The notes: generated by a model from the letters alone, not told the origin. Numbered from the stretch's first letter, positions 12,875 to 21,662 are shown. The stretch is 64,000 nucleotides of DNA from Singulisphaera sp. GP187 (GCA_945907755.1 CAMDTN010000005.1:16140-80139), one strand, 5' to 3'. A program made the numbers and translations.

Positions 12875-14299
12875 ATGAAACCCACTGATGTCTTGATTGC
12901 AGGAGCAGGGCCTGCGGGCAGCCTGCTGGCCACGATGCTCTGCCGTGATGGTTTTGCCGTCACGCTGCTGGAGCGCTCACAGCCACGCCAGCACATGCCC
13001 GAAGAGACCATCCCGGCTGCCGCTGGCCCGGTTGTGGAACGCCTCGGCCTCGCGCCTCTGTTCGCGCGCGAGAAGTTCTTCGGCACCCCGCGCCGCGGCG
13101 TGTGCTGGAGCCCCGGCGGCACACCGGAAATTAGTTGCACCAATCTCACCCCTGCTGAGCGCGGTTTCAAAGTGGTGCGTGAAGTGCTGGACCGCGAACT
13201 CCGCGTGATGGCCGTCGGTGCCGGCGCGCACATCTTGGACGCCACCGTGCTAAGCATCGACGCAGCAGCACAAAATGTGCGGCTGCGCCTGACCACTGGA
13301 AAAGAACAGGTCCTGACGGCTCCTGTCGTCGTGAATGCGCTGGGTGCCCGAGGCGCGCGGTTGAGTGCATCGGTGCAAGAGGGCTTCCCTGACACTCTCG
13401 CACTCACTTGCTGCATCGACAACGCCGGTGCTGACGCAGACATCACCGTGGTGGAAGCCGTGCGCGCCGGATGGCTGTGGTGGATGCCGCGCTCCATCGG
13501 CGGTTCTGTACTGACATTGATGGCCGACGCCGGAGAAGTGAAAAGCACTGGCGCCAAGAGCATTTTTGAAAGCGCCTGCCGCAGTGCCATCGGGCCCGCG
13601 CGCCATGTGCGCAGCGGTTGCGACACAGGCACCCGCGCAACGCCAGAACTTTTCTCGCCCACCTGGGGCATCCTGCATTGCGGCGACGCTGCGGCCGGCA
13701 TCGACCCACTCTCTTCGCAGGGCTTGCTGAAGGCCATGCTCTCTGCCGAACGCACTGCTGCGGCCGTGCGCACGCTACTGGCCACCCCCACACTGCGTCG
13801 CTCCGTCGAAGAGCACTTGCAAGCCTTTCATGCAGGGGCTTGGCGCATTCACGCACAAGAAACATTGGATTGGTACCGCCGCGAACAACGCTTCGCCGAC
13901 GCGCCATTCTGGAAAGCTCGTCACACGCTGCAAGCGCGCTACGCGCCTGTCACGGTGAGCCTGCCCACGATGTTTGTGCGCCGCGCGCGACTCGTGCCCG
14001 CCCCGCTGCTGGTGTGCGAGCAAGGCATGTTGCGCGAACGCACAGGCTATTTGTCGCCCCACACCAACGAGCCATACCACCAAGTCGGCCCCATCAGCGT
14101 CGATCAACTGTTGCGCATGACCGAACTGCCTGGACGCTTTGAAGATGTGTGCCGCCGCGCGCTGGCGGTGCAAGGCATGAGCCTGCACAGCGAAGGCGAA
14201 CTGCGCACGGTGCTCAGCGAAGCATTCCGCCTCGGCTTCGTTGAGAGCTTTAGGGCAGAGCTTCCCCGCGCGCCAAGCGCGCAGCACCCCATGCAGTGA
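12875..14299 (+). CDS. qhpG: FAD-dependent monooxygenase of the quinohemoprotein amine dehydrogenase maturation system (QhpG-like)
   Basis: DVLIAGAGPAGS is the FAD GxGxxG motif, and GDAAAGIDPLSSQG is the flavin monooxygenase/halogenase-type motif. Lies beside the qhp cluster but on the opposite strand. Confidence 0.65.
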   Translation: MKPTDVLIAGAGPAGSLLATMLCRDGFAVTLLERSQPRQHMPEETIPAAAGPVVERLGLAPLFAREKFFGTPRRGVCWSPGGTPEISCTNLTPAERGFKVVREVLDRELRVMAVGAGAHILDATVLSIDAAAQNVRLRLTTGKEQVLTAPVVVNALGARGARLSASVQEGFPDTLALTCCIDNAGADADITVVEAVRAGWLWWMPRSIGGSVLTLMADAGEVKSTGAKSIFESACRSAIGPARHVRSGCDTGTRATPELFSPTWGILHCGDAAAGIDPLSSQGLLKAMLSAERTAAAVRTLLATPTLRRSVEEHLQAFHAGAWRIHAQETLDWYRREQRFADAPFWKARHTLQARYAPVTVSLPTMFVRRARLVPAPLLVCEQGMLRERTGYLSPHTNEPYHQVGPISVDQLLRMTELPGRFEDVCRRALAVQGMSLHSEGELRTVLSEAFRLGFVESFRAELPRAPSAQHPMQ

Positions 14300-14891
14300 A
14301 ATTGGCAGCGGCCAACGATGCGCCGCTGAGATTGCGCTCGATGGGCAACTGTGGCAACGCGCGTGGCAGCGGTGACGCATGCCACACCATGCGGCCACCA
14401 AGCGCACGCAGCACCGGCGCCTCGCGCGGCAGCGACGCATCTTCTTTCACGCCGTACACACTGGGCAACACACCGGGAAACGACGGCAACCCCTGAAACG
14501 AGAGTGGCGCCACCAAGGCTGCGCCGCTTTCGCGGAGTTTGTTCACCGCGTGCTCGCAAGCCGCAGCATGACTGGCGCGCGCAGTGCCGAGGCTCAAGTT
14601 CACCAATTGTGCTTGCACGCTGGCGGCGTAATCCAACGCAGCCAGCAATGCCGCGAACGAACAGCGCGGTTCTGCGCCAAAGACGCGCACGATGTGCAAC
14701 ACAGCCAAAGGCGCAAGACTGTGAATGGCAGCGGCCGCACAGGTGCCATGGCCTAGCGCATCTTGCAGGGGCACGCCGTCCACGCGCGTTCCGTCGGCTT
14801 CGAACGCAGGCCCCGCTTCCAGCACCGCCCCAGCGAGGTGCGGGTGTTGTGGGTTCACCGAAGAATCGATGAGCACCACACGAACAATCAC
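14250..14891 (-). CDS. qhpE: Subtilisin-like serine peptidase (QhpE-like)
   Basis: Subtilase triad in D-H-S order: VVLIDSSV, HGTCAAAAI, GASLAAANFTAW. Start assigned to the GTG that overlaps the qhpB stop as GTGA. The ORF-track extension to 15227 is rejected because it runs 340 nt into qhpB. Confidence 0.6.
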   Translation of the reverse strand: MIVRVVLIDSSVNPQHPHLAGAVLEAGPAFEADGTRVDGVPLQDALGHGTCAAAAIHSLAPLAVLHIVRVFGAEPRCSFAALLAALDYAASVQAQLVNLSLGTARASHAAACEHAVNKLRESGAALVAPLSFQGLPSFPGVLPSVYGVKEDASLPREAPVLRALGGRMVWHASPLPRALPQLPIERNLSGASLAAANFTAWGAARLARGEALP

Positions 14892-19774: not shown

Positions 19775-19853
19775 CAAGACCTCCGAAGAGTGGGCTCACT
19801 AACGGGCGCGAATCGTACCAGCCACACTTGCGCCAACGCTCAGCCGCCGCATT

Positions 19854-21662
19854 TCAAACGGCACCATCCTCGGCGAACACATCCGCACGCCCAAGTATTC
19901 CCTCAGGCGGGCCATCGGCCACCACCCGGCCACGCTGCAGCACCACCAAGCGATCAGCACAGCGCAGCGCCGTGGGCCGATGAGCAACCACCACGATGAC
20001 GCGCCCCGGCACGCGGCGGCGCAATTCGGCAAAGATGCGCTGCTCGGCGTGCGGATCCAGCGCGGAAGTGGGTTCGTCGAGCAAGAGCACACTGCTGTCA
20101 GTCACGAAGGCCCGCGCCAACGCCAGCTTCTGCCACTCGCCGAGTGATAAGTCCCCACCACCGAAGCGCGCCCCGGGGATGGTCGCTCCTGCTTGTGGCA
20201 AGCGCGCCACGAGTGCTTCCGCATCCGCCGCCCGTAGCGCGTCCTTCACGCGCTCTGCGCTGGCGGCCCCACCGCAGCCGAGAGCCACACCGTCATGAAC
20301 ACTCAATTCGTAGCGACCAAAATCTTGAAACACCATCCCAAGGTGCGCGCGCCATGCTGCGGGGTCGAAGCGGCGCAAGTCCATGCCATCAGCGCATAGC
20401 GCGCCCGTCGATGGATCGTCCAACCGCGACAACAAGCGCAACAACGTGCTCTTGCCCGCACCGTTGGCACCTGCGATGGCAGTGATCTCGCCACAGCGCA
20501 ATTGCAGATTGATGTCCTGCAGCGCGTCGCGCGTTGCACCACGGTGGCGATAGTGCACACCACGCAACTCGATCCCCTGACGCAATTGCTTCGGCACCGA
20601 TTGCGCAGCAGCAGGCGCGGTGATCTTGCAGGGCACGCGGAACAAGTTGTCCAAGCGGCGCAGCCACAACGAGTGATCCAACAATGCCGACACGCCACCA
20701 ACGCCAGCCGTCAGTGCCATGAACAAGCGCTGCAACGCTTGGGCTTGCACCGCCAACAGCGGCAATGTCATGCGCCCATCCAGCGCTTCAAGCAGCAGCC
20801 AAGCCAACGCGCCGCCCACTGCCACCATCGCGCCGCCTTGCAGCAGCAATTCGCGCACCGATTGCTTGCGCGCGATTTGCAATCTCTCGCTGTTGATGCG
20901 CGTGCGCAACGCCAGCCAGCGCGCTTGCAGCGACGCCCCCATGCCGTGCACGCGCACTTCTTTGGCGTGGGCTGGGCCGGTCAGCAGCGCCGCGAGGTAT
21001 TGCGCCAAGCGCTGTTCTGGCGTGCGCTGTTCATGCCACTGCAAGAATTCGCGTGCGGCCCGCATGCGCAAGGCCACCGCAATGGCAGCCACCACGCTGG
21101 CCGCAAGCAAGAACCACGGCGACAGCGCCGCCATCAGCGCCGCGGTGAGCACAAATGTGAGCGTCGCTTGAACCAACCCCAACGCTGCATCGAAGGCGCG
21201 GTACGGGCGCTCGGCAACATCGAATTGCGCGCGAAAAAACAAGTCGTGGAATTGAGGGTCGTCCCACAGCGCTAAGTCCGCCGCGATGGCCTGAGATTGA
21301 ATACGTTGTTCGATTGCGAGCGTGACGCGCAGCCGCAGCGATTCGCCCAGAATCTGGCGCGCCGCACGCAGCGCTTGGTCCAGCAGCAGCACAGCGAGCA
21401 GCAGCGCACCAATTCCCCACACCGCTTCACGCGCGCTGGAACCATGCGGCATGCACCACTCGGGTGCCGCCGCGCCGCCCATAGCTTCCATGGCGCAGCC
21501 GATGGCCGCCGCGCTGCACGCAACGAAAACCAGCGGCGTAATTCCCTGCAACAAGCGCAACAGCAGCAGCAGCGTGGCGCGGCGCGGGTCGCTGCGCCAC
21601 ACCAGCCGCAAGGCCCAGCGCAGTGAAGCCATGCGCGCTGGCTCTGTTGCCGCAGCCGCCAT
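19854..21662 (-). CDS. qhpF: ABC exporter, fused permease plus ATPase (QhpF-like)
   Basis: Six-TM N-terminal domain followed by an NBD with Walker A GANGAGKST, signature LSLGEWQKLA and Walker B LLLDEPTSALD. The start lies 8 nt after the fbp stop. An alternative start exists at 21632. Confidence 0.65.
   Translation of the reverse strand: MAAAATEPARMASLRWALRLVWRSDPRRATLLLLLRLLQGITPLVFVACSAAAIGCAMEAMGGAAAPEWCMPHGSSAREAVWGIGALLLAVLLLDQALRAARQILGESLRLRVTLAIEQRIQSQAIAADLALWDDPQFHDLFFRAQFDVAERPYRAFDAALGLVQATLTFVLTAALMAALSPWFLLAASVVAAIAVALRMRAAREFLQWHEQRTPEQRLAQYLAALLTGPAHAKEVRVHGMGASLQARWLALRTRINSERLQIARKQSVRELLLQGGAMVAVGGALAWLLLEALDGRMTLPLLAVQAQALQRLFMALTAGVGGVSALLDHSLWLRRLDNLFRVPCKITAPAAAQSVPKQLRQGIELRGVHYRHRGATRDALQDINLQLRCGEITAIAGANGAGKSTLLRLLSRLDDPSTGALCADGMDLRRFDPAAWRAHLGMVFQDFGRYELSVHDGVALGCGGAASAERVKDALRAADAEALVARLPQAGATIPGARFGGGDLSLGEWQKLALARAFVTDSSVLLLDEPTSALDPHAEQRIFAELRRRVPGRVIVVVAHRPTALRCADRLVVLQRGRVVADGPPEGILGRADVFAEDGAV

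Follow-up and report, generated by a model that had tools for sequence, protein, structure and literature searches.

A predicted planctomycete gene cluster for quinohemoprotein amine dehydrogenase and the maturation of its gamma subunit

Does a planctomycete encode a quinohemoprotein amine dehydrogenase (QHNDH), and does it also carry the genes that would mature the crosslinked gamma subunit of this enzyme? The question is raised by positions 12875-21662 of a 64,000-nucleotide (nt) stretch of Singulisphaera sp. GP187 DNA (GCA_945907755.1, CAMDTN010000005.1:16140-80139), called the window when its full length is meant, for which an earlier note had proposed a complete QHNDH (qhp) cluster. Listing of the open reading frames (ORFs) and reading of the junctions place seven genes at the positions given in that note (Table 1). 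As references we used the characterised systems of Paracoccus denitrificans and Pseudomonas putida (PDB 1jju and 1jmx, and 7ctq for QhpG), with Paracoccus pantotrophus pPAN2 (L013) as an annotated locus and the curated cut-offs of NCBIfam as thresholds (Table 1). Judged by sequence comparison and by analogy to these systems, the region very probably encodes a functional planctomycete QHNDH together with dedicated machinery for maturation of its gamma subunit, acting via the characterised pathway.

Assignment of the seven genes

The call of a complete cluster with gamma-subunit maturation machinery is upheld by QhpA, QhpD, and QhpC, all of which pass the curated cut-offs, and Pfam agrees (gamma subunit, alpha-subunit domains, Radical_SAM, Peptidase_S8, and ABC_tran). 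QhpC (PF08992) is a precursor composed of a leader of ~27 to 30 amino acids (aa) and a core, and it aligns to the solved gamma subunits 1jju_C (E 3e-22) and 1jmx_G (E 6e-21) with all eight key residues in register. The predicted thioethers join Cys37/Glu46, Cys57/Asp63, and Cys71/Asp79, corresponding to Cys7/Glu16, Cys27/Asp33, and Cys41/Asp49 of the mature subunit, and the predicted pair of the cysteine tryptophylquinone (CTQ) is Cys67/Trp73 (mature Cys37/Trp43). In an alignment of 122 QhpC sequences, seven of the eight crosslink columns do not vary at all, and 121 sequences retain the CTQ Trp. Likewise, QhpD carries the radical SAM motif CX3CX2C (residues 101-108, nt 17424-17447) and seven SPASM cysteines (residues 349, 367, 405, 408, 414, 418, and 437; nt 16437-16703), all of them kept in the QhpD proteins of Paracoccus and Bryobacter; the Pfam SPASM model gave no match to QhpD at E <= 0.01. 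The earlier note had expected the 106-aa peptide to align to gamma subunits at the Cys, Glu, Asp, and Trp positions and QhpD to carry SPASM cysteines. Both expectations were borne out, the former at every position and the latter by a full seven-Cys motif in a protein that exceeds the curated QhpD cut-off.

In its fold, its CX3CX2C motif, and its SPASM clusters, QhpD resembles the thioether-forming maturases for peptides that are made by the ribosome and modified after translation (RiPPs), such as the ranthipeptide maturase PapB, the SCIFF maturase, and CteB-type sactisynthases. The second-best NCBIfam matches of QhpD are indeed PapB (263 bits) and the SCIFF maturase (223 bits), but neither family reaches the cut-off set for it, in contrast to TIGR03906. 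The RiPP systems also share leader-dependent processing followed by the action of a protease and an ABC (ATP-binding cassette) exporter. They differ in that the product of QhpC is an enzyme subunit rather than a secreted peptide, and in that its bonds connect a Cys sulfur to a methylene carbon of Asp or Glu.

QhpA matches 1jmx_A (E 5e-59) and the Pfam families PF09098, PF14930, and PF09100 (haem domain and domains II and IV). Pfam did not pick up domain III on its own, but the match to the NCBIfam model runs without a break from residue 86 to residue 600. The protein has a signal peptide and two haem c motifs, CIGCH (nt 19478-19492) and CGGCH (nt 19211-19225). Direct reading makes the ATG at 19774, with GGAGG 5 nt before it, the likely start. 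The low-complexity insertions mentioned in the earlier note are real and number three: one follows the signal peptide, one separates the haem domain from domain II, and one precedes the final strand of domain IV. Planctomycetes differ freely in the length and composition of these insertions, which are absent in Paracoccus and look like disordered linkers.

Assignment of the beta subunit required more sensitive comparisons. As a single sequence, QhpB gave no match to the QhpB chains in the PDB and nothing specific in Pfam and PDB searches. Clustering at 90% identity resolves its family into just 37 clusters, which bear either no name or the label "hypothetical" and all come from Planctomycetota metagenome-assembled genomes (MAGs). 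A profile built from this family does match the QhpB of P. putida (1jmx_B), and it does so over the whole length (residues 29-365, E 1.6e-8). An AlphaFold model (pLDDT 89) has 28 strands, which fits seven blades, and in a Foldseek search with this model the top two matches were 1jju_B and 1jmx_B (E ~3e-19, TM 0.53-0.58), the next propeller following at 3.5e-12. The slot between qhpC and qhpE is conserved across loci. Model and profile together indicate that QhpB is probably the seven-bladed beta subunit, homologous and equivalent in position to those of the solved enzymes, although by the curated threshold it falls outside their family; it is the most divergent component of the cluster. Fast evolution of QhpB appears to be general and not particular to the window, since the QhpB proteins of Bryobacter and Paracoccus are just as far apart (23% identity). 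In the solved enzymes the beta subunit contributes to the active-site pocket, and the divergence of QhpB leaves room for a different substrate specificity.

The two remaining maturation proteins were judged by their catalytic residues and their position. The triad of the Peptidase_S8 protein QhpE (Asp9/His48/Ser192) is invariant in 11 planctomycete QhpE sequences (the window and 10 loci) and in Paracoccus QhpE. QhpG matches the P. putida structure 7ctq (E 2e-11), has a GxGxxG motif at residues 10-15 (inside AGAGPAG), and conserves Glu42, Arg70, Val72, Trp74, Trp181, and Trp183, six residues that line the FAD (flavin adenine dinucleotide) and substrate channel in the P. putida protein (PMC7876137). 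In a single-sequence PDB search, flavin halogenases score slightly above 7ctq. The assignment of QhpG, which is probable, is backed by synteny in the Planctomycetota loci that we compared, defined as 12 genome loci encoding the divergent QhpB: all but one of them have a convergent qhpG (11 of 12).

By analogy to the route described for Paracoccus and Pseudomonas (PMC7876137), maturation would start with binding of the QhpC precursor by QhpD via the leader and formation of the thioethers Cys37-Glu46, Cys57-Asp63, and Cys71-Asp79. The flavoprotein QhpG would then dihydroxylate Trp73, leading to a CTQ linked to Cys67, and the subtilase QhpE would cut off the leader. The adjoining ABC exporter may move the crosslinked QhpC to the periplasm, where it would assemble with dihaem QhpA and propeller QhpB, both exported by the Sec route. 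The resulting enzyme is predicted to convert primary amines into aldehyde and ammonia, with the electrons passing via the two haems to a periplasmic acceptor.

Table 1. Features of the cluster and its surroundings, with NCBIfam scores in bits against the curated cut-offs
Feature	Position (nt)	Strand	Product or content	NCBIfam model	Score vs cut-off
qhpG	12875-14299	plus	FAD-dependent monooxygenase (predicted peptidyl-Trp dihydroxylase), 474 aa	NF049967	181.6 (E 2.4e-53) vs 240; below, best NCBIfam match
qhpE	14250-14891	minus	small leader peptidase of the subtilisin type, 213 aa, GTG start	QH_SP, NF049966	116 (E 1.4e-33) vs 165; below, sole NCBIfam match
qhpB	14888-16024	minus	predicted divergent beta subunit, seven-bladed beta-propeller, 378 aa, N-terminal signal peptide	TIGR03907	29 vs 223; far below
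qhpC	16021-16341	minus	gamma-subunit precursor, 106 aa	QH_gamma	116 vs 50; passes
QhpC crosslink core	16105-16233	minus	residues 37-79
QhpC Cys91 and Asp97	16051-16071	minus	fifth cysteine with Asp six residues on (CGAPVND), not in characterised enzymes
qhpD	16338-17747	minus	radical SAM/SPASM thioether-forming maturase, 469 aa	TIGR03906	499.5 vs 453; passes
qhpA	17744-19774 (ORF to 19777)	minus	dihaem c alpha subunit, 676 aa	TIGR03908	378 vs 274; passes
ABC exporter gene	19854-21662	minus	half-transporter (transmembrane plus nucleotide-binding domain), 602 aa
fbp	21671-22708	minus	class I fructose-1,6-bisphosphatase
MoxR-type gene	22793-23824	plus	AAA ATPase
tRNA-Pro (CGG)	12067-12141	plus	~730 nt upstream of qhpG
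Direct repeat, 78 nt	12129-12206 and 12312-12389		perfect, 183 nt from start to start
Kinase gene	9112-10386	minus	Ser/Thr protein kinase

Several points weigh against a functional QHNDH matured in this way. The organism is known only from metagenomes. QhpB, QhpE, and QhpG all score under the curated cut-offs of NCBIfam. Five residues of P. putida QhpG are essential by mutagenesis (PMC7876137); of these, Glu42, Arg70, and Trp183 are among those conserved, and Arg47 and Arg314 are unaligned in the QhpG of the window. The export step is argued from synteny alone, since the ABC exporter is not orthologous to QhpF, as set out below. QhpC has a conserved fifth cysteine without counterpart in the characterised pathway, and no gene for a regulator, an aldehyde dehydrogenase, or an electron acceptor is located nearby. 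The scores below threshold and the lack of a dedicated regulator and aldehyde dehydrogenase might also fit a decaying, nonfunctional relic, or a crosslinked peptide with a role other than that of an enzyme subunit. We consider such an explanation very improbable. All ORFs are intact, the catalytic and cofactor residues are conserved, and at every locus of sufficient length the alpha and beta subunits are conserved along with the peptide. Moreover, a deep-water Planctomycetota MAG from Lake Baikal (locus L001) is collinear with the window over 21 kb at ~74-79% DNA identity, and the ratio of nonsynonymous to synonymous substitution rates (dN/dS) against this MAG lies within 0.05-0.16 for all seven genes, qhpA included (qhpC, 0.05; qhpD, 0.07; qhpB, 0.08; qhpE, 0.10; ABC exporter gene, 0.13; qhpG, 0.16). 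These values argue that all seven genes are maintained by purifying selection.

Gene order and the ABC exporter

The core genes meet at translationally coupled junctions. These, read directly, are ATGA overlaps between qhpA and qhpD, qhpD and qhpC, and qhpC and qhpB, and a GTGA overlap between qhpB and qhpE; the convergent qhpE and qhpG share 50 nt at their 3' ends (14250-14299). The earlier note was correct on both the chaining of the core and the overlap of qhpE and qhpG. Its description of the arrangement as non-canonical does not hold, as the layout is common in Planctomycetota and qhpG lies on the opposite strand in Paracoccus as well. Also, the layout qhpADCBEFGR against which the cluster had been compared is a list of names and not a gene order: the pPAN2 locus reads G(-) A D C B E F R(-), and a gene for an aldehyde dehydrogenase comes next. 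The order and strands of qhp genes are known to vary (Oozeki et al.), and the order ADCBE is found in all 12 Planctomycetota loci. Given this variation, the opposite-strand qhpG of Paracoccus, and the 12 loci, the arrangement in the window is ordinary and normal for the phylum.

In other respects, too, the cluster resembles the characterised ones. It shares with the Paracoccus and Pseudomonas systems the same seven predicted functions, an ADCBE core with overlapping junctions, identical gamma-subunit crosslink and CTQ residues, a dihaem alpha subunit with domains II-IV, a radical SAM/SPASM QhpD, a small subtilase QhpE, and a flavoprotein QhpG encoded on the strand opposite to the core. Identities to the Paracoccus proteins are 31% (QhpA), 42% (QhpD), 53% (QhpC core), 24% (QhpB), 35% (QhpE), and 28% (QhpG). 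Differences concern the position of qhpG, which is downstream and convergent in the window but upstream and divergent in Paracoccus, and the ABC exporter gene, which in the window is located upstream and belongs to another subfamily. In contrast to Paracoccus, the window also lacks an AraC-type QhpR and an aldehyde dehydrogenase. A tblastn search with Paracoccus QhpR gave a best E of 0.64 in the 64-kb window, in line with the earlier note, and nothing at E <= 1e-3 in the 12 loci; no AraC domain was found in neighbouring genes, and no aldehyde dehydrogenase homologue in the window or the 12 loci. When the ORFs of the 12 loci were compared all against all for a regulator, an aldehyde dehydrogenase, or a cytochrome, only the seven qhp functions recurred. 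QhpR is an accessory and not an enzyme-defining feature.

The locus of Bryobacter sp. (Acidobacteriota; L014/L015) is somewhat closer, with identities of 35% (QhpA), 44% (QhpD), 54% (QhpC), and 37% (QhpE), all above the Paracoccus values. Its genes are ordered ADCB-F-E, followed by a convergent gene for an FAD-dependent oxidoreductase in the position of qhpG. This 549-aa protein has no BLAST match to the QhpG of the window, and its match to the Paracoccus protein extends over no more than 32 residues. Bryobacter differs from the window in its alpha subunit, which is 550 aa long and without long insertions, in its QhpB, which is 23% identical to that of the window, and in having a genuine QhpF orthologue encoded between qhpB and qhpE.

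This last difference bears on the gene that the earlier note had called qhpF. An ABC exporter gene is indeed located upstream of qhpA, but orthology of its product to QhpF finds no support. In Pfam the protein matches ABC_tran only, without a match to ABC_membrane, and it is similar over its full length to MsbA-type exporters (208 bits, below the cut-off). The match to Paracoccus QhpF (28% over 171 aa) covers only the nucleotide-binding domain (Paracoccus residues 391-561), and that to Bryobacter QhpF (31%) extends over 280 aa (Bryobacter residues 296-575), whereas the Bryobacter and Paracoccus proteins align to each other over 502 aa. Clear QhpF orthologues do occur in planctomycetes: at two loci (L002 and L007) they are 36-38% identical over ~525 aa and are encoded upstream of qhpA in divergent orientation. 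From these comparisons, the exporter of the window is not an orthologue of the characterised QhpF and is best described as its positional analogue. The earlier note was right about the cluster as a gene set, and the divergence of QhpB and of the ABC exporter had gone unnoticed.

Possibly, then, a QHNDH-like enzyme is made and the ABC exporter is an unrelated neighbour, for instance one cotranscribed with the class I fructose-1,6-bisphosphatase gene (fbp), the true QhpF being encoded elsewhere in the genome. The restriction of the QhpF match to the nucleotide-binding domain and its vicinity and the presence of genuine orthologues in other planctomycetes would fit this view, as would homologues of the exporter at 31-34% identity that occur in unrelated contexts. 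The intergenic distances point in the same direction: the fbp stop lies 8 nt before the start codon of the exporter gene, so that the two may perhaps form one transcript, and 76 nt separate the exporter gene from qhpA. The adjacency of fbp and the exporter gene is also seen in the Baikal locus. Against this, genes of the same exporter subfamily immediately precede qhpA, in the same orientation, at L001, whose QhpB is 81% identical to that of the window, and at L005, L006, and L011, whose QhpB proteins are only 41-43% identical (five loci with the window). Homologues of the exporter at 52-53% identity have longest contigs that agree in length with those of QhpB homologues, and no QhpF-like gene was found in the 64-kb window. 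We therefore regard an unrelated neighbour as decidedly unlikely. In one subclade of planctomycetes the cluster appears to have recruited a non-orthologous ABC exporter, as argued from synteny.

The fifth cysteine and the CTQ region of QhpC

QhpC of the window has one cysteine more than the characterised pathway accounts for, Cys91, followed by Asp97 (Table 1). In the alignment of 122 sequences this column is Cys in 121, Bryobacter included, and the lone exception is the Paracoccus reference; the residue is Ala in both Paracoccus and Pseudomonas. The surrounding motif is S-C-G-A-P-x-x-D-W (C-x5-DW), with a universally conserved Asp97, and among QhpC representatives at 50% identity the fifth Cys recurs in several lineages. 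Bryobacter QhpC likewise has five cysteines, the C-x5-DW motif, and the C terminus IDLVFP.

The remaining cysteines of the gamma subunit are all consumed in C-S bonds, and no conserved partner Cys for Cys91 was found in QhpA or QhpB. The C-x5-D spacing of Cys91 and Asp97 equals that of the known Cys27-Asp33 bridge. Asp102, in the sequence IDLVFP, was considered as a strict co-variant of the fifth Cys. This residue is invariant in the close clade but was rejected on the representatives, because several Cys-bearing ones lack Asp102 and some Cys-less ones have it; Asp97 is therefore the likelier partner. Conceivably, QhpD makes a fourth intramolecular thioether, Cys91-Asp97 (mature Cys61-Asp67), in a large, mostly non-proteobacterial QhpC clade, and in one planctomycete subclade an ABC exporter from a different subfamily has in addition taken the place of QhpF. 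This combined proposal, built on sequence conservation, is tentative and rather doubtful at present.

A second difference from the characterised enzymes concerns the residue preceding the CTQ Trp, which is Trp in those enzymes and Tyr72 (16126-16128) in the window. Of the 122 aligned sequences, 111 have Tyr and 8 have Phe in this column. In the characterised system, the Trp docks into a hydrophobic pocket of QhpG formed by Trp74, Leu268, and Phe322 (PMC7876137). The QhpG of the window has Trp at the Phe322 position.

Some QhpC-related sequences deviate from the pattern. In the tblastn translation of qhpC at one planctomycete MAG locus (L002, 9527-9841), the Cys27 equivalent is missing at a one-residue gap ("GL-TP"), probably because the copy is defective or because an error arose in sequencing or assembly. 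The search for representatives also returned, from outside the window, two long proteins (P0234, 557 aa; P0247, 518 aa) whose N-terminal ~105 aa resemble a QhpC precursor, with a leader-like start (MKH..N..AK), CxxxxxPGxE, and YWPAQRPD, and without a Cys41 equivalent. The rest of each protein is a C-terminal domain of ~420-450 aa fused to this QhpC-like part, and the two may represent a distinct QhpC-derived family. Two further matches, the long repetitive proteins P0252 and P0263, were discarded as spurious low-complexity or repeat matches.

Genomic setting and implications

The cluster is set among housekeeping genes, including those for ribosomal protein S1, a Mur ligase, fructose-1,6-bisphosphatase, and a 2-oxoacid dehydrogenase E2. 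A scan for promoters and terminators was uninformative, with no promoter-like sites and fewer terminator-like sites than in shuffled sequences. Horizontal acquisition as an island was considered on account of the flanking tRNA-Pro gene with its duplicated 3' end. It is unsupported, because the GC content is uniform and 21 kb are syntenic with the Baikal MAG. The first copy of the perfect 78-nt repeat (Table 1) begins in the last 13 nt of the tRNA gene and contains a hairpin with a GC-rich stem followed by a T run. The repeat might be the att-like trace of an integrated element that has since been lost, or it might be an artefact of assembly; no integrase was found near it, and the GC content is uniform. 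A 202-aa ORF at 11860-12468 is considered spurious because it spans the tRNA. A gene for a Ser/Thr protein kinase lies within a few kb of one end of the cluster, and one for a MoxR-type AAA ATPase within a few kb of the other. Kinase genes are also found near the cluster at L001, L004, and L009, with no functional link established; the Ser/Thr kinase was considered as a linked gene common to four loci, and its recurrence is probably coincidental.

In conclusion, the cluster is an ordinary member of a widespread and already known system, and gamma subunits from Planctomycetota MAGs have in fact been annotated automatically by NCBI. The planctomycete versions of QhpB, QhpE, and QhpG are missed by the curated models, which is why automated annotation leaves the beta subunit as a "hypothetical protein." The interest of the locus is modest and lies in an apparently replaced exporter, a poorly modelled beta subunit, and a fifth cysteine. 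Apparently, the export step can be served by a non-orthologous ABC transporter, and the fifth Cys present in most non-proteobacterial gamma subunits offers a testable lead for an additional crosslink. The presence of the system in Planctomycetota widens the known range of QHNDH without conceptual change, and it suggests that members of this phylum could use primary amines as a source of nitrogen or carbon.

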